Source: a phage
Strand: one strand, 5' to 3'
Sequence record: PQ327946.1
Length of the DNA stretch: 64,000 bases
The notes under the pieces are model-generated. The model did no database searches. It was not told where the DNA came from and worked only from the letters and a program-made list of their open reading frames with translations. Within the stretch, counting starts at the first letter, position 1. Every line of letters starts with the position of its first letter. This document shows, piece after piece, positions 1,703 through 51,398 of the stretch. The position numbers and the translations under genes were made by a program.

Positions 1703-2418
1703 TAGTCAAGGAATCCTTTAACATAATCAAAATCACGTTCAAACACATGGGCACTTACCATGGTATGAGTATAATCACCAACTTCTACACCACATTCGTT
1801 AGCGATATAATGAAGTAATTTTCCTTGGAGATAAAAATCCAACTGCATAACAACAGCACAGTTCTGAGAACGCATATGGCAGTGGGTATAAAGCTTACCA
1901 TCACGAATATAATAAGTCACCGAGTCAGTACATGGATATTCAAGCGTTTCGTCCGAATCAAGCAAAGCCTGATCAGAACTTTCTAGAATTTGGAACACAA
2001 CTCTTCGGGAGTTAGGCTTCTCTTTAAGTTCTTTTAGAAGAGCTGGTAATTGGGCCGCAATGCGAGGACCATAGAAAGTGTTGAAGTTCGCCGGCAAAAC
2101 ATCTGATTTTGGTTTAGAAATAAATTTAGCGACATTAGGATATGCCTTAAACGCTTCTTCTGCGTCAGTACCACCAGAAATCATAAACTTCCAGAAGTCT
2201 TCGGCATATTCATAAGAGATGCGGTTAATACGTGGGTCGGTCATTTTGAATGATGATGGAGTGTCAACAACTACTGTCATAGACCCAATTTCATTACAAC
2301 GTCCAATACGAGAATCAGTTACGAATTCCGGGTTTTCTAAAATTTCACGATTGACTGCTTTAAATGCGGTTTGAAAATCTGCGGCTTTGATATATTTCAT
2401 TGTGTTATGTTTTCCCAT
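1702..2418 (-). CDS. 42: dCMP hydroxymethylase (thymidylate synthase family)
   Basis: 238 aa; ThyA-family motifs YPCTDS and MRSQN; position upstream of gene 43 as in T4. Confidence 0.75.
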   Translation of the reverse strand: MGKHNTMKYIKAADFQTAFKAVNREILENPEFVTDSRIGRCNEIGSMTVVVDTPSSFKMTDPRINRISYEYAEDFWKFMISGGTDAEEAFKAYPNVAKFISKPKSDVLPANFNTFYGPRIAAQLPALLKELKEKPNSRRVVFQILESSDQALLDSDETLEYPCTDSVTYYIRDGKLYTHCHMRSQNCAVVMQLDFYLQGKLLHYIANECGVEVGDYTHTMVSAHVFERDFDYVKGFLD

Positions 2419-2696
2419 GTTTACCTCAATACAATTTATTATATACTCAATTCGTAAAGCTTATTTGAATTTCTTGACAATGTTGATATAACGTAAAGCT
2501 TCAGCATCGATACTTCCAAGAACACTATGAAGAAATGCATCAGCGTAGTATTCCAATTAAACAGGTTCTTTAATCACTTTAGCCGCTTTAGTTTCAAACA
2601 GGCCCATCAGGGCCTTTTTAAGAATTTGTTCGATGCTGTTAATTTTCATAGTCAAAATCTCTTCGTTAAGTTGGTGGTTAAAAGTTTTTCTAGAAA

Positions 2697-3857
2697 TCAT
2701 TCTGGGTACCTCAAAGCGTCGTCAGAGTTAGTTATATCAATAATAGATATAGAATTTTCTGATAACCCATTTTTAGATAACTGACGTTTATAATATCTTT
2801 CACAATATGTACACGTCGTCCCGCAGATTTCATTAGCACAATCGAAATCTGGATGTTTGAACCACCTTTTTTCTAAAAAGCCATCTAACAAAGAGGTTTC
2901 AATATTTACCGTATGTGAAAACTCGGTCTCATTTTCAAGAGTGAAAATGGTCTCTAAAGGCTTCCACAATTCCAACAAATTACCTTCAAATTTTTCGGAA
3001 GCATAAGCTTCAAGAACTTTCAAAATGTAGTCTGTGCTACCTGTACGTCCTGAAACTTTGAATTGAGTGATACCAATATCATTATAAAGTTTCAAATCTT
3101 GAGGACGAACAAAACGAGTTCTCAACCAGTTAAATGGGTCTGTATCACGAGCTTTAATACAGTGCTGCATTGGATACCCATTTAAGGATTTGGCATCATC
3201 TACTGTAACATCGGTGCTATGGAAAATATAGCAAGAGTCACGATAACTACAATGTGTTGTATACCCTTTACCAGCATTAGAACAGAACTCATTTACAAGA
3301 ACTTCAAATATTATATTGTTCTTATTACAAAACTCTGCTGCACGCTTCAGGAAAGAAACTGAACGGTTCTTATGAATTCCGCAGCAGACCTTTTTGATAT
3401 TATATTGGTCATGCAAGTATTTGATTTGAGTTACAGCATCGACATGTAGAATTGTTGAAACTTCAATCTCAATGTCTTTATTGACTTCACGAACAATTTC
3501 CATAACAACAGGGTTAGCGATAGTAATACGCCATACGCCTATTGACCAAAGATACTGAACATAATCCTGAATAGCTTTCTTCTTCCACTCAACTAGTTCT
3601 CTTTTTGAACCAGGATTTATCGTGTTGAGTGTATAGTTAAAGCAAATACCTAATTCGTTACAACGTTTAACGTAGTCTTCTAACATCTTTTTGTCAACGT
3701 CAGGAAGCCTAAAATCAGGTCTGGCTGCTACAAAAGCCATTTCTCTTGTAGAGCCATATACTTCGTTTATCAAGCTATTAGGATAGGTTTTATTGAGCTC
3801 TACGATTTTATCAAGAAGAGCTAAATCAAAATTCGTTCCGATTTTAAAAGTATTCAT
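2697..3857 (-). CDS. U32-like TIM-barrel protein with C-terminal cysteine cluster
   Basis: 386 aa; N-terminal pattern resembles U32 family; C-terminal CANEICGTTCTYC cysteine cluster. Confidence 0.45.
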   Translation of the reverse strand: MNTFKIGTNFDLALLDKIVELNKTYPNSLINEVYGSTREMAFVAARPDFRLPDVDKKMLEDYVKRCNELGICFNYTLNTINPGSKRELVEWKKKAIQDYVQYLWSIGVWRITIANPVVMEIVREVNKDIEIEVSTILHVDAVTQIKYLHDQYNIKKVCCGIHKNRSVSFLKRAAEFCNKNNIIFEVLVNEFCSNAGKGYTTHCSYRDSCYIFHSTDVTVDDAKSLNGYPMQHCIKARDTDPFNWLRTRFVRPQDLKLYNDIGITQFKVSGRTGSTDYILKVLEAYASEKFEGNLLELWKPLETIFTLENETEFSHTVNIETSLLDGFLEKRWFKHPDFDCANEICGTTCTYCERYYKRQLSKNGLSENSISIIDITNSDDALRYPE

Positions 3858-3914
3858 TTTTTTTGCATCCCACGTTAATTGATGCGATGGTTTTTGCAGG
3901 TCTTACTTAAATTA

Positions 3915-4316
3915 TTATAGATTCGGTTTATATGATTTAAATGTTTCGAATTCGCCTTTATTCATAAGAGCTTTGAATTCGTCAGGACGCATAGCTTTGT
4001 CGTCGATAATCCAATCATATACTGGTTTATGTGTTAGCAAATTATGGTACTTCAATCCAATGTTTGCCAAGTTCTGAATCAGACTTGGGAGAATGTCAAT
4101 TGCTATACGACCAGGACCGACTGACTTCATACCGCGAGCAGTGTAAAGCGTTATGGTATGCCCTGCATCATACAGGGCATTAATGGCAGATACCATTTCG
4201 ACGTCTGGTTTGAAGTTCACGTAATCACGATTGTTATTCCACTCTGTTATACAATCATCGACATCAAAACAAAGATTAAGCATGTTTTCTACACGGTGCA
4301 TTAGATTCGTTCCCAT
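3915..4316 (-). CDS. HAD-superfamily phosphatase-like protein (start uncertain)
   Basis: 133 aa ORF; FDVDDCIT fits HAD motif I (DxD); alternative ATG starts at 4301 or 4283. Confidence 0.5.
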   Translation of the reverse strand: MGTNLMHRVENMLNLCFDVDDCITEWNNNRDYVNFKPDVEMVSAINALYDAGHTITLYTARGMKSVGPGRIAIDILPSLIQNLANIGLKYHNLLTHKPVYDWIIDDKAMRPDEFKALMNKGEFETFKSYKPNL

Positions 4317-5986
4317 TGATGAGTGATATCGCCACCGATTGGACGATAAGAAACACCAGTTTCTTTATCAGTTAGTACCCATTTACCAGGATTTTTTGTA
4401 ATCAGAGTAGCCGTTACAGGTTCTGCTACATCATAACTAATAGTGCCGTCCTGAAGTACACGGCCCATGTTACGTAATTGCTTAGTCAGAAGTTCCATAC
4501 CTTTATAATATGCGGCTACCGCTTTAAGTGGATTATTCTTGAAATAACCACCTAATGCAATCCAGATAATTGCTACAGCCAAATGATGATACTCATTAAA
4601 CGAACTCATCTTTCCATATTTGTAAACTAATGGATTGATGTTAATAGTCACATTACAAGTTGTTTCATCAATAGTAAACTGACCCCAGGTCGGATTAGCG
4701 TTGAATTCATCATAACCTGAAACAGCATAAAGCACTTTAGCTTCATCATACAATTTTGGCCCATAAATCTTGGTTTCACCAAAATATCCACGAGGGTCGA
4801 TAAACTTGACTTCACCATTATCAGTAATCATAGTATTACTGAAGTTCGGGTCACCATGAATAACAGAGTACTGTCCCTGAGAACGGTTATGATAACGAAT
4901 AAGGTGTTCTAAAGCTTGTTTCAGCATTGGCTTCAGACGCCCAATCTTAGTGTAGTTCACATGTGTGATTTTACCAAATGAATCAATCAATGGTTGAATA
5001 CTTTCACAACGATCAATAACTTTCGTATAGAATTCTTTAGTGAAATCACGACGAACAGTTTCAGGACTTACAAAATAAGTGTCTGTGCTGAATTTCAGTG
5101 CGTCTAAAATTGCATCAACAATTTGTGGACGAGCAAGACTCGATTTGGATTTAATATATTCAAATGCTGGCTTACCTTTAATGCGTTCCATTTCAAAGTT
5201 ATTTTCATTAACAGAAACTAACTGAGGAACTGAATCTGATTTCACTTTAAGATACCATGAAATCTCATCTTTCTGAAGAGCTCGTCCCTGTTCGGTTAAT
5301 GCGAATTTAGTTACAGTTTCTTCACCAATTTCAACTGCATTAAAACTACGATTAAGTTCACGAACTTCATGAGCTTTTTCAAGTTTAGGCATATCACCTA
5401 AATCAATTAGATTCATAAGCTCTGATTTATTGAATGCGCTGCCGTAAAGGAATTCTACGAAATCACGTCCTTTGCAGTATTCATGAATTTCCTCATCAGT
5501 AGAACCCATATAGAATTCCCAGTCTTTGAACTGATAAATTCCTACAACATTACCACCTGTTGAACCTACGTTAGTGATATTTTCGCCGTCGAAATTATAT
5601 CGACATTCGTCACCCTTAACATAGATTGCGTTAACATTCCAAGACCATGAACCAAAATCAGGAATAATATCACACCAGTTAACAATTACATTATGACCGT
5701 CTAAATCTTTGTGTAATTTAGCAAGAGCATAAGCAGAACCGTACGCTTCATCAACTGTACGAATAGTCACATTGAACCCTTCTTGCTCACAATAAACTCG
5801 AACAGTTTCAGCAAATTTTGAATGAACTACTACAATAATTTCATCTGCGCCAAGGTCAGAATAAATTGTATACAAATTGCTCAGAATAGTGTCTTGTTTA
5901 TAGTTAACAAGCACCTTAGGAATATGATGCGTTATTGGATACAAACGAGTTGCCAGTCCAGCACCAAGAATAACAGCTTTTTTCAT
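4301..5986 (-). CDS. Bifunctional sugar-1-phosphate nucleotidyltransferase / APH-fold sugar kinase
   Basis: 561 aa; N-terminal ILGAGLATRL nucleotidyltransferase signature; C-terminal HGDPNFSN ... DPRG kinase motifs. Confidence 0.6.
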   Translation of the reverse strand: MKKAVILGAGLATRLYPITHHIPKVLVNYKQDTILSNLYTIYSDLGADEIIVVVHSKFAETVRVYCEQEGFNVTIRTVDEAYGSAYALAKLHKDLDGHNVIVNWCDIIPDFGSWSWNVNAIYVKGDECRYNFDGENITNVGSTGGNVVGIYQFKDWEFYMGSTDEEIHEYCKGRDFVEFLYGSAFNKSELMNLIDLGDMPKLEKAHEVRELNRSFNAVEIGEETVTKFALTEQGRALQKDEISWYLKVKSDSVPQLVSVNENNFEMERIKGKPAFEYIKSKSSLARPQIVDAILDALKFSTDTYFVSPETVRRDFTKEFYTKVIDRCESIQPLIDSFGKITHVNYTKIGRLKPMLKQALEHLIRYHNRSQGQYSVIHGDPNFSNTMITDNGEVKFIDPRGYFGETKIYGPKLYDEAKVLYAVSGYDEFNANPTWGQFTIDETTCNVTININPLVYKYGKMSSFNEYHHLAVAIIWIALGGYFKNNPLKAVAAYYKGMELLTKQLRNMGRVLQDGTISYDVAEPVTATLITKNPGKWVLTDKETGVSYRPIGGDITHQWERI

Positions 5987-6167
5987 GTTGTGGTCCTCAT
6001 TGGTAAGTAGGAGTATTGTACACTATTCTAGTTAAAGCATTCATACTTTGCTTGTAGTCCAATCATAATCCATCCGATTATAAGAGTCGGAATCATTACT
6101 GGAGCCGTTAAGCTCCAGTAGATAGTCATGACAAGCATCAATAGTAAAAGTCCTATTGTTATTGCTT

Positions 6168-9583: not shown

Positions 9584-9602
9584 TTTGTTTGTTGATGAAC
9601 TT

Positions 9603-9633
9603 ATTATACTCCAAATGGGACCGAAGTCCCATT
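9603..9633 (-). promoter_or_regulatory. -10 TATAAT element plus UUCG-tetraloop hairpin downstream of regA
   Basis: Minus strand AAUGGGACUUCGGUCCCAUU (8-bp stem) then TTGGAGTATAAT, shared with promoters at 27553 and 28546. Confidence 0.45.
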
Positions 9634-9636
9634 GCT

Positions 9637-10014
9637 TTAATTACCAATTGTATATTTTGCTTTCAAAGTCCAGTCATCTTTCTGTTTAAAAGAGATAACA
9701 CGGAAGTTATTAGTCAGGCCAAACAGATCTTCACGAGCAGAGTCTTCAATAACAATCAATCCCCATTCTTCAAGCAACTGAGCAATCGAATCACGTCGCT
9801 GATAGTCTTCACCGTCAATATCAACCTGACGTCCGTCCATACGCAACATTTCTTTAAAGTGGACGATATAGTACTTACCTTGCTTTTGGAGGATATGACA
9901 AGACTGGTAAAGGACTTTATCTTTGTTATTAGCGATGCCCATACGAGTCAGAGTCTCTTTGACTTTCAGAAAATCTTCAGGGTTCTTCAATTTAATTTCA
10001 ATCATTTTTACCAT
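9637..10014 (-). CDS. regA: Translational repressor RegA
   Basis: 125 aa; synteny between 43 and 62; sequence resembles T4 RegA. Confidence 0.85.
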
Positions 10015-10571
10015 TCCAATGCTAATTTTTTAAATTGTTTTTGTTCTTTCACATTTTTTGTAACTTCTTTGAGAAACTCATCAGTGACCATGGCCTTCAG
10101 TTCTTTAAGGACTATTGGCAACTTGTTATTTTTTTCAAGGAGCCGCTTATACTCAGTAGCATCATTCATGTTGATTGTGTAATGTTTCATCAACAGTTTG
10201 ATAACTAGTAACTCTGAAGTGTCTTCGACTAGTTTAGCCCATTTAGAGAATCGACGACCACGTGGAATTGCCGCCATCATATAGTTGAAGTGCGCTTCAT
10301 CACTTAATTCAGAACCGACTAAGTTCATCATGTAAACGGCTGGCATACATTCTGGAAACTGGGATAATGAGTTCTCAACCATAAATTTTGAGTAGTCGAC
10401 CTGAGCAATTGACATAGATTTCTTTTCATTAATAGCATTAATGATTTTAAAGAATTCATTCTCAGGTTTTTCTTTAAACATATCAGCACATTTTTGAATC
10501 GCATCAGCGTCATTAGACTTCCATGCAATTTGGTGCTCGTTAAGCCGGACGTCATCATCGAATAAGTTCAT
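10008..10571 (-). CDS. 62: Clamp loader small subunit
   Basis: 187 aa, same length as T4 gp62; between 44 and regA. Confidence 0.85.
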
Positions 10572-12766: not shown

Positions 12767-12958
12767 TTATTCGTAGAAGTCGGTAACTGTCCATGCGGAA
12801 TTGCGATTAGACATTATTTTATTATACTCATCTTTAAAAGCAGATTTGAGCATTTGTTCGGTAACAATATGTTCTTCACCTGAAAACGTATTGGTCAAAA
12901 CATATTTTTTAATTTCAGGGACAACGAGAAGATGTTGCCCGGTTGAATACTCCGCCAT
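12767..12958 (-). CDS. 45.2: Small protein, 45.2-like
   Basis: 63 aa ORF in position of T4 45.2. Confidence 0.45.
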   Translation of the reverse strand: MAEYSTGQHLLVVPEIKKYVLTNTFSGEEHIVTEQMLKSAFKDEYNKIMSNRNSAWTVTDFYE

Positions 12959-12982
12959 TATAAATCTCCGTGTTTAAAGCAA

Positions 12983-12990
12983 TATAAATA
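12983..12990 (+). promoter_or_regulatory. Late promoter TATAAATA for the HNH endonuclease gene
   Basis: Exact TATAAATA on plus strand about 45 nt upstream of ATG 13036; SD AAGGA at about 13023. Confidence 0.5.
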
Positions 12991-13035
12991 GGTTTATCAA
13001 TTTATCTGTTGCTGTATCAAATAAGGATTTAGTAA

Positions 13036-13752
13036 ATGAATTATAACTCAATATACGAAAAGCTTATCGCCAATGCTAAATCAAGAAGTTTAGATGGTTA
13101 TACAGAACGTCATCACATTATACCACAATGTTTAGGTGGAAGTGATGATGCTTTAAACTTAGTAGACTTAACACCGGAAGAACATTATTTGGCACATCAA
13201 CTGTTGGTCAAAATCCATCCAGATAATGCCTCTTTAATATATGCCGCTCGTATGATGACAATATCATCTCCTAAAGCAGATAGAAGCAAAAACAAATTAT
13301 TTGGATGGCTTCGACGTAAGAATCAAGAAGTTCAAAAGAACAAAGAATTCACTGCTGAAACCCGTAAGAAAATGTCTGAAGCCGCTTTAAAGAGACCAAA
13401 GATTACCTGTCCACATTGTAATAAATCTGGATACGTTTCTAACATGCGTCGTTGGCATTTCGACAACTGTAAGCATGGACCCAACAAGTGTGTACATACT
13501 ATACCTGAATCACAAAAGCAAAAAATAAAAGACGGGTTAAAGAATGTGGTTCACACTATAGTCCAATGCCGGTATTGTAACATGGAAGGTATAAAGTGTG
13601 TTATAGCAGCACATGAAAAATTCTGTAAATCAAATCCCAATAGAAAGAAAAAAGAGGACAAGAAAATTCAGTGTCCTCATTGTGATAAAATAGGAATCCC
13701 TGCTAATATGTATCGTTGGCATTTTGATAATTGTAAACACAAGCCTCATTAA
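13036..13752 (+). CDS. HNH homing endonuclease with tandem C-terminal zinc-finger repeats
   Basis: 238 aa; HHIIPQCLGG ... EEHYLAHQ HNH motif; two repeats CPHC.K.G...NM.RWHFDNCKH; opposite strand to all neighbours. Confidence 0.75.
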   Translation: MNYNSIYEKLIANAKSRSLDGYTERHHIIPQCLGGSDDALNLVDLTPEEHYLAHQLLVKIHPDNASLIYAARMMTISSPKADRSKNKLFGWLRRKNQEVQKNKEFTAETRKKMSEAALKRPKITCPHCNKSGYVSNMRRWHFDNCKHGPNKCVHTIPESQKQKIKDGLKNVVHTIVQCRYCNMEGIKCVIAAHEKFCKSNPNRKKKEDKKIQCPHCDKIGIPANMYRWHFDNCKHKPH

Positions 13753-15437
13753 GAGGCTTTCATTACAGTAAATCGTCCAACTTTGCTCATTTGAAGATGT
13801 TGTCCATAACGTTGAGGGTCATGGTCTCTATGAGAGATAATGAACACGTTAGTATTTTGTAAACTGCCAAGGATGGTATCTATAGCCTTAACAGCCTCAG
13901 AATCAACAGCTCCATCAAAAACCTCATCAAGAATCAACGTGTTGATTTTAACACCAGAAACCTTTTCGGCAATATCTCGCCATGTAAACAACAATGCGAT
14001 ATCGATACGTGCCTTTTCACCTTGACTAAATGAAGCATAACTGAACTCTTCACGACCACGTGATTTTATAGATTCATTGAATTCTTCATCAATAGAAAAC
14101 ACGTAATCAGCTTCCATGATTTTAAGATAATGGTTAATCTGCTTGTTGAACAGAGGCACATATTTTTTAATGATAGCACCTTTAATACCAGAATCTTTTA
14201 ACATATCTGTGATAATACCACGATGGTATTTTTCAAGAACGATATCTGATTTTGTTTTAATGATTTTATCAAGTTCTTTTTGAAGCAAAGCTATCTCATC
14301 GGCATGGTCGATAAATTCTGCTGAGGCTTGTTCTATTGCGGCTTTAACTTTCTTAGCTTTATCAATAGTGGCAATCATTGCTTGTTTCTTGGTACGAATA
14401 TCAGATGCAAGGTCCTGTTTAGTCTTAACATTAGCTCTATATTCGTCCACTAGGACACTCAGATTATCTCTGTGACATGTAAGTTGCTCGAATGAGTGAT
14501 TACATTCGTGAAGCTTATCGGTAATCTTAGAGACAATAGGGTCACCCTGGTGCAACTGTGACGCACAAGTAGGACATGTGCCACCGTCATGATACATCTT
14601 AATAACTTTGTTATATGAGTCGATTTTAGATTTAATCAAGAATGCTTCTTGTCCGATCTTGTTGAATGCCTCAGTAGGGTCTTCATCAAGAACGATATTA
14701 AGTAGTCGCTCATTAGCTTCTTCGATTTCTGCTTTTAATGAACGAGCTTCTTTGGCTAGGTCATCATACATATTCTGTAGACGCGCTACATTATCACCAG
14801 ATAATTTCTTTTGACGTTCGATATTCTCGTTATAAATCTTAATTTGTTGGATAACACCATCTTTCTTGGCATCGAGAACTTGTCCCTGGGAATTAAGTTC
14901 TCGAACTTGAGACTTATTGATTTTATCCATTTCAGCGAGTGTGCCGACTTCTAAAAGGTCTTCGACAAGTTTTCTACGAGCAGGGGTGCTAAGAGCCATG
15001 AAAGGGGTATACCCTGCCGTCCCAAGCACAACGATTTGTTTAAAAGACGCGTATGACATTCCGATGCTACGTTCAAATTCTTCTTGGAAGTCACGACTGC
15101 TGGCAGATTCATCGAGACGAACACCGTCAACGGAGATTTCGAAAATATTGGGCTTTTGGCCACGTTTAATGAAGTATTTTTTACCATCGAATTCCATCCA
15201 AAGCTCAACTAAGAGCTCTTTCTTGTTCGTGCTATTAATGATTTGCCCTTTCTTAACATCACGAAATGGTTTACCGAAAAGTCCGAAAGTAATGGCTTCT
15301 AACATCGTAGATTTACCACCACCATTTTTACCAGTGATTAATGTCTTTTGGACTTTATCTAATTGGATGTCAATAGGATTCCCACCTACCGACATGATGT
15401 TTTGATAACGAACACGATTTAATTTAAATGATTTCAT
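13749..15437 (-). CDS. 46: Recombination nuclease subunit (SbcC/Rad50-like)
   Basis: 562 aa; Walker A GKNGGGKST, C-terminal ABC signature region; T4 gp46 is 560 aa. Confidence 0.9.
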   Translation of the reverse strand: MKSFKLNRVRYQNIMSVGGNPIDIQLDKVQKTLITGKNGGGKSTMLEAITFGLFGKPFRDVKKGQIINSTNKKELLVELWMEFDGKKYFIKRGQKPNIFEISVDGVRLDESASSRDFQEEFERSIGMSYASFKQIVVLGTAGYTPFMALSTPARRKLVEDLLEVGTLAEMDKINKSQVRELNSQGQVLDAKKDGVIQQIKIYNENIERQKKLSGDNVARLQNMYDDLAKEARSLKAEIEEANERLLNIVLDEDPTEAFNKIGQEAFLIKSKIDSYNKVIKMYHDGGTCPTCASQLHQGDPIVSKITDKLHECNHSFEQLTCHRDNLSVLVDEYRANVKTKQDLASDIRTKKQAMIATIDKAKKVKAAIEQASAEFIDHADEIALLQKELDKIIKTKSDIVLEKYHRGIITDMLKDSGIKGAIIKKYVPLFNKQINHYLKIMEADYVFSIDEEFNESIKSRGREEFSYASFSQGEKARIDIALLFTWRDIAEKVSGVKINTLILDEVFDGAVDSEAVKAIDTILGSLQNTNVFIISHRDHDPQRYGQHLQMSKVGRFTVMKAS

Positions 15438-15688
15438 ATGTATTCTCTTCGAATGAAGTCCTCTACATATTTTAACATGTCATCTCTATCAGCAAAATAT
15501 TCATCTAGTTCTGCATACATAACAACACCTGGTGCGTACTCACAGGTAACATACATTGTTCCAAAGAAACGAGGAGTTGATTCCTCGTAATTCTCAGTCC
15601 ATTCAACGATACCAATATAACCGTCACCAATACTAAATTCATGACGATGGATTTCATAATCAGTCTTCGTCATTATACGCGTCCTCAA
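15434..15688 (-). CDS. 46.1: Hypothetical small protein
   Basis: 84 aa ORF between 46 and 47. Confidence 0.45.
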   Translation of the reverse strand: MRTRIMTKTDYEIHRHEFSIGDGYIGIVEWTENYEESTPRFFGTMYVTCEYAPGVVMYAELDEYFADRDDMLKYVEDFIRREYI

Positions 15689-16933: not shown

Positions 16934-17215
16934 ATTATTTCCTCATTAGTTAATTCATTCTATCATCCGTTTATAAAGCAAAAAAGGAACTCCGAAGAGT
17001 TCCTATCCACATAGTACACCGTACAGAGGCTCATTTGAACTTTTAAATCGAATGGGCTTGTATGTAATAGTTCCTTCGGCTTTAGCTTTATCATAAGACT
17101 CTTTAAAACGTCTCATTCTTTCTGCTTTGCCTTTACGGATTTTATCGAAATTTTCAGAAGTCTGGGTGTTCGTCATGCATAATCACCTCTCAGAAAATAC
17201 CTAAATCGATTTCTC

Positions 17216-24017: not shown

Positions 24018-24487
24018 TTTAAACTCTTTCTAAGCTGCTTTTTGAATGAAGCTATTAATTGTGTTTTGGTATCAGATTCATTATATTCAAATCCTCTTTG
24101 AAGCATCTCGGCCATCATTTCCTCTTTACCTAGTCTTGAGAACTCTTTAGTTTTGTCTGGAACAAAATTAGGATGGATATTATTATCAGAATAATCTTGT
24201 TTCAAATAAGCAAGAAGAGCTTCAAGCCATTCTAAGTAGTCAACGTTTTGTCCTTTCAAACCGGAACGGTTGAACTTATGCTTCATTTGACCTTCTGCTG
24301 CGTTGCACAGATTACAGAGTAAACCACGAACTCTACCTGCTTTTGGCCCGTTTAATTCGTGGTCGTGGTCAAGATGGTTACCTTGAACATCAGGGTCTAA
24401 TTCACGGTGGCAAATAGGACACTTACCATTCTGTGCATCATAAAATTTTTGTTTTTCTTCTTTATATTTTGCGCCTGATAATAACAT
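24014..24487 (-). CDS. 49: Endonuclease VII (Holliday junction resolvase)
   Basis: 157 aa; sequence closely matches T4 endo VII as I recall it, including zinc-binding cysteines. Confidence 0.9.
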   Translation of the reverse strand: MLLSGAKYKEEKQKFYDAQNGKCPICHRELDPDVQGNHLDHDHELNGPKAGRVRGLLCNLCNAAEGQMKHKFNRSGLKGQNVDYLEWLEALLAYLKQDYSDNNIHPNFVPDKTKEFSRLGKEEMMAEMLQRGFEYNESDTKTQLIASFKKQLRKSLK

Positions 24488-36601: not shown

Positions 36602-37080
36602 TCAACAATCACAATTTCTAGTTTAGTGGAATACGTATCTAAAATCTCTTCGATGACATCCCAGTTTCCACCACCGATACCTGCACCAATTCTTGGCATA
36701 TAAATTACAGGCTTTGTTATCTTATTCTTTCCGAATTCATTTAATTCTATTATACAATTCATTAAAGCAGAGTACTCAAAATTAGGTCCCGGCTCAAACT
36801 GCGTATAAAGATTAAAGCAATAAGCTTTATGGGTCTTAAAATATTTTTCATAAACTGAATAAGTCCCGAGTTTAGACTCGTCTCCGAATTCGGTTTGAAG
36901 TTTATCGGCTTCTAAAATTTTTGGATAAGCCTTTGCTAATTGGCCTGCTACACCGGCGCCCATTGTATGAAAACAATTACACCCATGAGCAATATTATTA
37001 CCTTTAGAAAACAGGGCGACAATATCGCCCTTGATATAGTTTTTAATCACTTGCTGCAAGTCCTCTATTATAAGAGTCAA
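36583..37080 (-). CDS. Macro-domain (ADP-ribose binding/processing) protein
   Basis: 165 aa; glycine-rich MGAGVAG and IGAGIGGG segments in macro-domain arrangement. Confidence 0.6.
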   Translation of the reverse strand: MTLIIEDLQQVIKNYIKGDIVALFSKGNNIAHGCNCFHTMGAGVAGQLAKAYPKILEADKLQTEFGDESKLGTYSVYEKYFKTHKAYCFNLYTQFEPGPNFEYSALMNCIIELNEFGKNKITKPVIYMPRIGAGIGGGNWDVIEEILDTYSTKLEIVIVDWEPLL

Positions 37081-38753: not shown

Positions 38754-39019
38754 TAGTATTTTTCCTCTGGTCGAAATACCGCACGGCATGCCCACATGCT
38801 GGCTTCTTTTAGATGTTGCTTAGCATACTTAAGAGCCTGCACTGCATCCATATCTTCTTTGGTTTGTTGCTCTGATTCATTTTCTTTCAAGATATATGCT
38901 TCTTCAATCAGAGCATCAAACATCAATCCAAGACGGACTTCTGCGTCTTTAATAGCGTTCACTTTACTGATTTTATCATCGGTATGTGGCTTGTAGCCTT
39001 TGATGTCTTCAATCGACAT
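38753..39019 (-). CDS. Hypothetical protein
   Basis: ATG at 39019 with SD GAGGAAA. Confidence 0.4.
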
Positions 39020-40446: not shown

Positions 40447-40718
40447 TTTGTTCTCTCTAAGTTTGGGCCATTCCATGGCACATGAATTGTCCATTTCTGT
40501 ATTTACCCATTACCGCACTTGGGCTCGACCTTATTACAGGTTGGCGGGAATCCCTCATAGAATCATGAGGTCCAGCTTGTTCCCATGTTATTTGAATGTA
40601 AATATTTTTGCCTTAATACTTATACCAGTGTGGCTTCATTAAAATTTTTTCATCGAGTCATTTTACCTCTCCAAGTAATTATGATTATACTATCACAATT
40701 CTAGGAGAAAGTAAACTG

Positions 40719-46113: not shown

Positions 46114-46386
46114 TTAGCAAGTGTGAGAAGATGCGATCCAACCACCAGTTTCGAGGCTCAGGTTGTAGTCGTATTGGTAAACATCAGCCCATTCAGCATA
46201 GCCGTTTTTTGTACAACGTTCAAGATCGGCTTTAAGTTGTCCGGGTGAATGATAGGTTCCACCCATACCATAAGCTGGATACAAGTCGAATGTTGTGTTT
46301 TGTTTATCAGCAATTTCTTTGGCAGCCTCAATAGCTGCATAGATTTTTGCTACAGCTTCAGCCAGTTCGGTTTGTTCTTTAGACAT
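46114..46386 (-). CDS. Small protein, tandem paralog family
   Basis: 90 aa ending GGWIASSHTC. Confidence 0.45.
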   Translation of the reverse strand: MSKEQTELAEAVAKIYAAIEAAKEIADKQNTTFDLYPAYGMGGTYHSPGQLKADLERCTKNGYAEWADVYQYDYNLSLETGGWIASSHTC

Positions 46387-46395
46387 AATGATTCC

Positions 46396-46701
46396 TTAGC
46401 ACAACGCAGAAGACGAAACCCAAGCACCTTCAGTAATAACGTAACCATTACCTTCACGCTTAACATCGCCACCATTATTTTCAATTTCATCTTTCATCCA
46501 CTGGGATACGATTTCACCCTTAGGATAATAAGTACGACCGCTACCATAATCACCTACAGAAAATGATACGGCGTATTGGTCTGCGATCTTTGTTGCTTCT
46601 TCTTCGATACGTTCAGCTTGATTCAGAAGTTTATAAATTGCATCTGAAGCGGATTTGGCATCATTAAACTCTGGTACTTTAATTTCAATAATCTTACTCA
46701 T
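46396..46701 (-). CDS. Small protein, tandem paralog family
   Basis: 101 aa ending GAWVSSSALC. Confidence 0.45.
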   Translation of the reverse strand: MSKIIEIKVPEFNDAKSASDAIYKLLNQAERIEEEATKIADQYAVSFSVGDYGSGRTYYPKGEIVSQWMKDEIENNGGDVKREGNGYVITEGAWVSSSALC

Positions 46702-49971: not shown

Positions 49972-50024
49972 TATGCCTTGCGGCAACCTTGTCGGGGTTC
50001 CACCTGCTAAGGCAAGTGTTTGTA

Positions 50025-50048
50025 CGAAACGCCGGGATTCGAACCCGG
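50025..50048 (-). other. tRNA-like T-arm/acceptor remnant
   Basis: Minus strand CCGGG-TTCGAAT-CCCGG; no convincing D or anticodon arm found by hand. Confidence 0.3.
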
Positions 50049-50283
50049 TTATTAAGCAGTTGACACTACTCAATATTTTTAAAAGGCCATATCTCGACCA
50101 TATCCGAACGTTCCGTCAAAAACGCTACTCGGCTTACGGCAAAGATATTTCCTCGAATCGATAATTCTGTGCGCCGTTTCTGCTGTGATGTAAGGGGATA
50201 TTAACGAATCATAAAGATTTATTAAGACCAGTCCTTACACAGGGAACATCAGTCCGACGACTTGCCGGTAGCGACCCGGCTTC

Positions 50284-50803: not shown

Positions 50804-50882
50804 TAAATAACTTTCTATTATGAAAGGCACTTTAGAGCACCTTTGGTAATAGATGGTATGAATTAATAATAACACATAATTC

Positions 50883-51398
50883 TTAAAGCAAATCAATCAT
50901 TTTAACTGTTGGCAAAACGATTTCTTCTTCAATATAAGCAAATTCGACACGTTCAACTACACGCAAGAAATCATAATCATAATATTCAGAAGCATGGCCA
51001 AGAATATCAGTGAGACCTTCTGATACCAAATATTCATTCTCACGGAACAGGTCGAATACACGCGATTCGTCTTCTTCAGATTTATTACCGAGGTCGACTT
51101 CAATATCAAAGACCTTTTTAATGAATTCTGGATAAAGCTGGTCTGAGAACAGTCCTTCAACCAAGTATTCATAGATTAAAAGCGAGCAATCACTGAATAG
51201 TGTATTACCACAGTAACGTTCAGCTTTAGTACTAGAATGACGACTCTTAAATTTCTTCAAGAGATATTTAAACTGTTGGAGCTCATGCTCTTCTACACCA
51301 AATAATGTTTTGGTTTTATAGTTGTCACTGTCATTTTCCCAAGTAGTGACATCAATTACATAACCTTTAGGAATTGTACTGCCTAAACAAATATTCAT
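50883..51398 (-). CDS. Hypothetical acidic protein
   Basis: 171 aa ORF. Confidence 0.45.
   Translation of the reverse strand: MNICLGSTIPKGYVIDVTTWENDSDNYKTKTLFGVEEHELQQFKYLLKKFKSRHSSTKAERYCGNTLFSDCSLLIYEYLVEGLFSDQLYPEFIKKVFDIEVDLGNKSEEDESRVFDLFRENEYLVSEGLTDILGHASEYYDYDFLRVVERVEFAYIEEEIVLPTVKMIDLL

Follow-up and report, generated by a model that had tools for sequence, protein, structure and literature searches.

The Mob endonucleases of phage T4 consist of an HNH domain fused to a distinct C-terminal DNA-binding region, and of these, MobA and MobE act as nicking enzymes and show preferential inheritance (PMC2988022). The T4 genes mobA, mobC, mobD, and mobE are described as co-oriented cassettes without promoters, all T4 homing endonuclease genes (HEGs) but segD are co-oriented with their neighbors, and no segD-specific promoter has been found in T4 (PMC2988022). 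I-TevIII, the HNH endonuclease of the RB3/T4 nrdB group I intron, carries two copies of a CX2CX12-13HX3C motif that bind zinc and are needed for DNA binding; its fingers lie within the C-terminal ~75 residues that mediate dimerization and hence double-strand cleavage (PMC1865063). Here we describe an HEG that lies between genes 45.2 and 46 in a stretch of 64,000 nucleotides (nt) of phage DNA from sequence record PQ327946.1, referred to below as the window. The window corresponds to the early/middle genes of a T-even phage whose closest group is Mosigvirus, with ~97% identity to phages SSE1 and HX01 over 10 kb. Judged from its sequence, the element is quite probably a free-standing cassette of the T4 Mob type, active and expressed late, whose means of spread is intronless homing.

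Domains of the 45.2/46 endonuclease

The HEG protein matches the homing endonuclease family PHROG 655 with an E value of 8e-64 and has 2761 homologs at E≤1e-5. Its N-terminal 95 residues are a Mob-type HNH domain, 43 to 55% identical to those of MobB, MobD, and MobE over 70 to 120 amino acids (aa). By BLASTP, the T4 proteins matched are MobE (43% over 120 aa; E 2e-27), MobB (50% over 98 aa), MobD (55% over 75 aa), and MobC (38% over 130 aa), and a tblastn search of T4 with the same protein finds five places, which are the five mob genes. With the T4 enzymes, especially MobE (encoded at nrdA/nrdB), MobB, and MobD, it shares the signature MNYxxIY...E-HHIIP-C-GG-DD-NLV-LT-EH-AH. The first part of this signature, MNYxxIYxxLI, is the common N terminus of MobB, MobC, MobD, and MobE and supports the assigned start codon.

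The canonical HNH motif claimed in the original prediction is present in the core ERHHIIPQCLGGSDDALNLVDLTPEEHYLAH as E24-H26-H27...N41...H50...H54, and residues H26, H27, N41, H50, and H54 are invariant in 46 aligned relatives. The core aligns residue for residue with those of McrA, a group II intron maturase, and Cas8-HNH, and the AlphaFold2 (AF2) model places β strands at residues 24 to 27 and 42 to 45 and a helix at 47 to 60. A sequence search of the PDB with the HEG protein returned marginal HNH cores only, and PADLOC, searched for membership in a defense system, returned only its generic “HEase” profile. A chance antisense open reading frame (ORF) in an AT-rich intergenic insertion can be argued from the general frequency of spurious ORFs, of which the one at 9589 to 10182 on the plus strand is an example, but it is refuted by the homologies given above, by the purifying selection described below, and by an AF2 model with a predicted local distance difference test score (pLDDT) of 89, and we regard its probability as negligible.

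The C-terminal half of the protein contains three zinc-finger (ZF) units of the form CX2C-X11/12-H-X3-C (CCHC), with all 12 zinc ligands intact. Each of ZF1 and ZF2 is preceded by a helix resembling NUMOD3, the first of which is FTAETRKKMSEAALKRP; the window protein itself has no match to Pfam NUMOD3 (PF07460), whereas 17 of the 46 relatives do, with a best E value of 1.7e-29, and the AF2 helices at residues 107 to 118 and 158 to 169 lie at the equivalent places. The original prediction had counted two tandem zinc-finger-like repeats. We find a third unit, and the two obvious repeats are not tandem: the 77-nt direct repeat behind ZF1 and ZF3 (13399 to 13475 and 13663 to 13739; 73% identical) has its copies 264 nt apart, on either side of the divergent ZF2.

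It is in this half of the protein that the relationship to I-TevIII appears. ZF2, the linker KSNPNR, and ZF3 align with ZF-I, KLNPNR, and ZF-II of I-TevIII (38% over 61 aa, E 2e-8; residues 37 to 92 of the T4 protein), and the protein also matches the PADLOC HEase profile (E 6e-8) and PHROG 12324 (E 7e-8). The I-TevIII-family profiles match only HEG residues ~164 to 235, i.e., the C-terminal ~70 residues. We considered whether the gene might be an I-TevIII ortholog, which is ruled out by its intergenic position and by the confinement of the family match to that C-terminal part. Like I-TevIII, then, the protein has the zinc-finger module, but it is free-standing and not intron encoded, its nuclease domain is of the Mob type, it has three fingers rather than two, and the ZF2 spacer is 11 residues long. 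It likewise differs from MobB, MobC, MobD, and MobE in having a three-finger array as its C-terminal half, although the general plan of an HNH domain joined to a distinct C-terminal DNA-binding region is the same. On these alignments the protein combines a Mob-type nuclease with an enlarged array of I-TevIII-type fingers.

Insertion, distribution, and mosaicism

The edges of the HEG cassette were defined by alignment with the HEG-less phage PNJ-9 and the HEG-containing phages F2 and ST0. The cassette takes the place of a ~65-bp junction between genes 46 and 45.2, for a net gain of 741 bp, and homology to the HEG-less phages resumes at 13760. At one end it extends into the opening codons of 45.2 and at the other into the final three of gene 46, with the result that gp45.2 begins with MAEY rather than the MEY of HEG-less relatives and gp46 ends with MKAS* rather than MTVS*. 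The HEG is antisense to both neighbors, and its stop codon shares 4 nt with that of gene 46.

Comparison of this junction in related phages, a check proposed with the original prediction, reveals an insertion polymorphism. The matched span is 2003 bp in 14 HEG-containing records, compared to 1262 to 1264 bp in ~140 HEG-less close relatives. The cassette is thus carried by 14 of ~150 Mosigvirus-like records, and far from being present in all relatives, an outcome that would have counted against the original prediction, the gene is missing from ~90% of the close ones, which keep an intact short junction. The short junction without an HEG is found in T4, RB69, PNJ-9, HX01, and others; in T4 it is a spacer of 55 bp, in agreement with the earlier observation that T4 has nothing here. 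The polymorphism extends within one named species, since one mar005p1 record (OZ035759) has the HEG and others, LR027386 among them, do not. In being free-standing between conserved T-even genes and sporadically distributed, the window HEG resembles the T4 mob genes; it differs in occupying a site that is empty in T4 and in its antisense orientation. The T4 gene segD is likewise opposite to its neighbors, but it belongs to the GIY-YIG family and not to the HNH family.

Diverged alleles, likewise antisense, occupy this site in the Dhakavirus phages Bp7 and FB (72 to 75% aa identity), in the Tequatrovirus phage G4498 (60%), and in Klebsiella T4-like phages (46 to 49%). Those of F2 (YP_010068820), Bp7 (YP_007004119), G4498 (YP_010070154), and Klebsiella phage Prick1 (XNS45197) also share the architecture of the window protein and are already annotated “homing endonuclease.” Exact copies of the 238-aa protein, in the same gene context, occur only in two metagenomic contigs, and the nearest allele in the phage collection (INPHARED/GenBank) is 78% identical overall. 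A scan of IMG/VR with the family alignment found distant relatives only, at most 39% identical over the full length and on unrelated contigs, and was uninformative for the 45.2/46 site. No published account of an HEG at 45.2/46 came up in our literature search.

Two features of these alleles argue for mobility. First, the similarity of the HEG is discordant with that of the flanking genes. Compared with FB, the window HEG is 75% identical (85% in the nuclease domain), while gp46, gp45.2, RpbA, and gp45 are 58 to 68% identical; compared with G4498, the HEG is 60% and gp46 82% identical. Second, the same cassette sits in two gene 46 haplotypes. The 3′ end of gene 46 is of the PNJ-9 type in the window and of the HX01 type in the 14 HEG-containing records of the phage collection, yet the cassette junctions are identical, and the flanks revert to the local haplotype within ~15 bp. 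Together with the match to PHROG 655, the identity to Mob proteins, and the I-TevIII-type fingers, this discordance and the two haplotypes bear out the proposal that the gene is a mobile homing-endonuclease insertion.

The HEG itself is, on allele comparison, a mosaic. Relative to F2 and ST0, its nuclease domain is 99 to 100% identical and ZF3 matches at 36 of 38 residues, but residues 151 to 200, which contain ZF2, match at only 12 of 50. The window ZF2 module is closer to the Dhakavirus type, matching FB at 26 of 50 positions over the same residues. At the same time, the protein is under purifying selection, as indicated by a dN/dS of 0.12 to 0.18 against divergent alleles and by a nuclease domain with no nonsynonymous change relative to F2 (dN 0, dS 0.086).

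Selection of this kind bears on the idea of an inactive relic, an intact ORF at the last stage of the HEG life cycle, whose product cleaves no extant target and whose patchy distribution would come from ongoing loss and ordinary homologous recombination. T4 itself carries a defective mobA and a defective I-TevIII, and a relic would be consistent with the lack of a clear co-conversion gradient noted below. Against this, the catalytic residues and the full set of zinc ligands are preserved, the promoter motif and Shine-Dalgarno sequence are conserved, dN/dS is 0.12 to 0.18, and the nuclease domain is unchanged relative to F2 despite a dS of 0.086; we consider a relic very unlikely.

Several observations concern the DNA around the cassette. 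The last ~200 bp of gene 46 (13775 to 13975 in the window) exists as two haplotypes that are 24 to 31% apart in genomes that are otherwise 97 to 99% identical; both occur with and without the HEG, and this hyper-diverged patch adjoins the HEG site. The F2 and ST0 version of this 200-bp patch suggested an imported co-conversion tract, a reading that we rejected, as the same haplotype is found at 97 to 98% identity in the HEG-less HX01, JK36, and mar005P1. Because this haplotype is common in HEG-less Mosigviruses, we take the 3′ divergence to be a standing dimorphism and not evidence of conversion. The patch could have been left by conversion in the past or by target-site escape. An imperfect inverted repeat of 20 nt (70% complementary) lies near the cassette ends, at 12970 to 12989 and 13721 to 13740, and is probably due to chance in AT-rich DNA.

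A second Mob-type HNH gene is found between genes 46 and 46.2 in F2 and PNJ-9; it encodes 286 aa, matches PHROG 655 at E 4.5e-31, and is co-oriented with its neighbors. Gene 46 is therefore flanked by two alternative HEG sites, of which F2 occupies both, PNJ-9 only 46/46.2, and the window phage only 45.2/46. Where F2 and PNJ-9 carry the second HNH gene, the window has 46.1 (DUF5487; 15434 to 15673). In Bp7, gene 46 beside the HEG is annotated in two pieces (3400 to 3582 and 3662 to 4900 in the extracted stretch), with a 183-bp gap after the HEG; the cause could be a frameshift, an error in sequencing, or genuine damage to gene 46. Phage F2 (NC_054913.1) is filed as a Tequatrovirus, but its 44-47 region is 96 to 100% identical to that of the window at the protein level and distant from T4, which points to a misclassified or mosaic genome.

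Expression signals and the displaced junction

The original prediction assigned the gene its own late promoter and Shine-Dalgarno sequence, and both motifs are present (Table 1). The late-promoter octamer TATAAATA is found at the same relative position before the Bp7, FB, and G4498 alleles, in surroundings that have diverged, so that its position is kept in both Dhakavirus and Tequatrovirus; the Klebsiella allele has TTAAATA there. In this the cassette differs from the promoter-less mob cassettes of T4 and from segD. Expression of the HEG is likely to be restricted to late infection, since no early gene is transcribed on the plus strand here. A scan for sigma-70 promoters and terminators between 12300 and 14300 revealed nothing beyond chance. 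By analogy to I-TevI, we also considered autorepression through an operator; the region 12959 to 13040 scored 18 against the HEG-less junction, compared to a shuffled mean of 18.4, and the idea was rejected for lack of similarity.

The cassette also carries sequences that resemble signals of the junction it displaced. At its left edge is a candidate MotA-dependent middle promoter on the minus strand, and the displaced spacer of HEG-less phages has a comparable element, TGCTTTA-N11-TATAAT in T4 and CGCTTTA-N12-TATAAT in PNJ-9. Since the -10 element of the candidate promoter in the cassette overlaps the 45.2 ATG, its transcripts would supply rpbA and 45 but leave out 45.2. Just after gene 46 is a hairpin that covers both overlapping stop codons, with folding energies (ΔG) of -15.7 and -16.1 kcal/mol and z scores of -5.6 and -5.0 for the plus- and minus-strand RNAs, respectively. 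The hairpin is identical in Bp7 and FB, G4498 has a different and weaker one, and the window hairpin fails the T-run rule of the terminator scan; it is a candidate 3′-end signal for the transcripts that converge on it from either side. From these motifs, the cassette appears to compensate for the signals it displaced, with a MotA-type promoter for rpbA-45 and a hairpin immediately after gene 46.

Such replacement signals are also what might be expected of a domesticated nuclease, a former HEG that no longer homes and is kept either for excluding T-even competitors by cutting in the gene 46 region or for supplying a promoter and terminator to 46-45.2-rpbA-45. Its occurrence at one site and in one orientation in four genera, under strong purifying selection, agrees with this idea. 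However, ~90% of close relatives do well without the cassette, the HEG and flank phylogenies disagree, and the cassette is found on two flank haplotypes. Moreover, competitor exclusion is a by-product of homing in T4 (PMC2988022), so that it is not a truly separate mechanism. On balance, domestication seems unlikely.

The middle-promoter pattern TGCTTNA-N11-13-TANNNT has 11 matches in the window, compared to 4.0 ± 2.0 expected, and 9 of these are on the early-gene strand. Besides the one in the cassette, matches on the minus strand include those at 6015 to 6039, 16957 to 16980, 24080 to 24105, 36744 to 36769, and 50866 to 50890. The 11 sites make up a candidate map of the middle promoters of this phage.

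The minus strand of the window carries genes 62, 44, 45, rpbA, 45.2, 46, 46.1, 46.2, and 47. The HEG had been described as the only plus-strand gene in ~56 kb; this stands for recognizable genes, but other plus-strand ORFs of at least 50 aa do exist. In a greedy ORF map from position 1 to ~56.2 kb, none of them has a PHROG match. They include 9589 to 10182 (197 aa), which is antisense to regA (9637 to 10014) and the start of gene 62, and ORFs at 38796 to 38996, 40475 to 40642, 46249 to 46566, and 49973 to 50164, all probably spurious. The last of these overlaps a 95-nt tRNA-like gene found by ARAGORN on the minus strand (50022 to 50116), which lies beside tRNA-Arg(tct) and tRNA-Met(cat) and received a four-base anticodon call (ttta) with no definite identity.

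Table 1. Features of the HEG cassette and adjacent genes. Positions are those of the window except in the last two rows, which give coordinates of extracted phage stretches.
Feature	Position	Strand	Basis
HEG cassette, ~806 bp, replacing the 46/45.2 junction	12954-13759		Alignment
HEG ORF, 238 aa	13036-13752	+	ORF map, PHROG 655, homologs
T4-type late promoter motif TATAAATA, 45 nt upstream of ATG	12983-12990	+	Exact match
Shine-Dalgarno sequence AAGGA, 8 nt before ATG	13023-13027	+	Sequence; kept in F2, ST0, Bp7, FB, and G4498
HNH catalytic core, residues 24-54, ERHHIIPQCLGGSDDALNLVDLTPEEHYLAH	13105-13197	+	Conservation, core alignment, AF2 model
NUMOD3-like helix before ZF1, residues 104-120, FTAETRKKMSEAALKRP	13345-13395	+	AF2 helix 107-118
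ZF1, CPHC-X12-H-X3-C, residues 125-145	13408-13470	+	46% identity to I-TevIII ZF-II over 28 aa
Second NUMOD3-like helix, residues 155-170		+	AF2 helix 158-169
ZF2, CRYC-X11-H-X3-C, residues 178-197, swapped module	13567-13626	+	Motif, allele comparison
ZF3, CPHC-X12-H-X3-C, residues 213-233	13672-13734	+	C213, C216, H229, and C233 family-invariant
Candidate MotA-dependent middle promoter, TGCTTTA-N12-TATAAT, left cassette edge	12957-12981	-	Pattern match
Hairpin AAGCCTC-ATTAA-GAGGCTT over both overlapping stop codons	13741-13759		Folding
Gene 45.2, 63 aa, one extra Ala codon relative to HEG-less relatives	12767-12958	-	PHROG 1045
Gene 46, SbcC-like recombination nuclease subunit, convergent with HEG	13749-15437	-	
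46/46.2 HEG of F2	2028-2888		
46/46.2 HEG of PNJ-9	3886-4262		

Proposed mode of spread and implications

What is known of the Mob and I-TevIII families suggests how the cassette would move. Late in infection, RNA polymerase carrying gp55 would start at TATAAATA, so that the enzyme is made only late. In a co-infecting relative without the HEG, the zinc-finger array would recognize an extended asymmetric site in or close to the 46/45.2 junction, and the HNH domain would nick the DNA, as do MobA and MobE, or make a double-strand break if the finger domain dimerizes, as in I-TevIII. Phage recombination-repair would then copy the cassette from the HEG-containing genome, a process of intronless homing. 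The HEG-containing genome would itself be immune, the simplest explanation being that its junction sequence, along with the opening codons of 45.2 and the final ones of gene 46, has been exchanged for the cassette.

Several points weigh against this account of an active, homing cassette. The HEG protein scores 12.7 bits against the Pfam HNH family PF01844, below the cutoff of 21.4, and 14.7 bits against HNH_5, for which the cutoff is 27.5; PF01844 does match 29 of the 46 aligned relatives at E<0.01, and for this reason we ascribe the subthreshold score to divergence of the HEG subfamily from the Pfam seed. The octamer TATAAATA is not enriched in the window, with 8 matches compared to 8.3 expected, and its significance lies instead in its conserved position upstream of divergent alleles. 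No clear co-conversion gradient is seen; donor- and recipient-type single-nucleotide polymorphisms in the window flanks are patchy and uninformative. The long-lasting presence of alleles at this one site across several genera could mean that the gene is retained for a benefit to the phage. Finally, we found no experimental study in the literature of cleavage, target, or preferential inheritance for any 45.2/46 allele.

The homing cassette favored here can be carried one step further. In the manner of a natural modular zinc-finger nuclease, the cassette may act as a self-contained unit that changes its specificity through swaps of single zinc fingers. The window allele has nearly the same nuclease domain and ZF3 as F2 and ST0 but a different ZF2 module, and it adjoins the alternative haplotype of the gene 46 patch; if ZF2 type and gene 46 haplotype prove to be functionally matched, the locus would preserve the traces of an arms race in which recognition by the HEG is pitted against escape of the target site. 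The cassette would also rewire host transcription, with a late promoter of its own, a MotA promoter that stands in for the displaced one and bypasses the start codon of 45.2, and a hairpin acting in both directions. We think this extended proposal unlikely.

The HEG belongs to a well-known kind of element, and its relatives at this site are already so labeled in databases. It is mildly unusual in its antisense, self-promoted arrangement, in its three-finger array with a swapped middle finger, and in its apparent replacement of host signals; the current understanding of homing is unchanged. For annotation, the 45.2/46 junction joins the recurrent HEG insertion sites of T-even phages, and local mosaicism around gene 46 is to be expected by phage engineers and comparative genomicists. 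A three-finger HNH enzyme is a possible compact, naturally modular scaffold for nicking or cleavage if its target is mapped. The joining of a Mob-type nuclease to I-TevIII-type fingers illustrates the shuffling of domains between free-standing and intron-encoded endonucleases.

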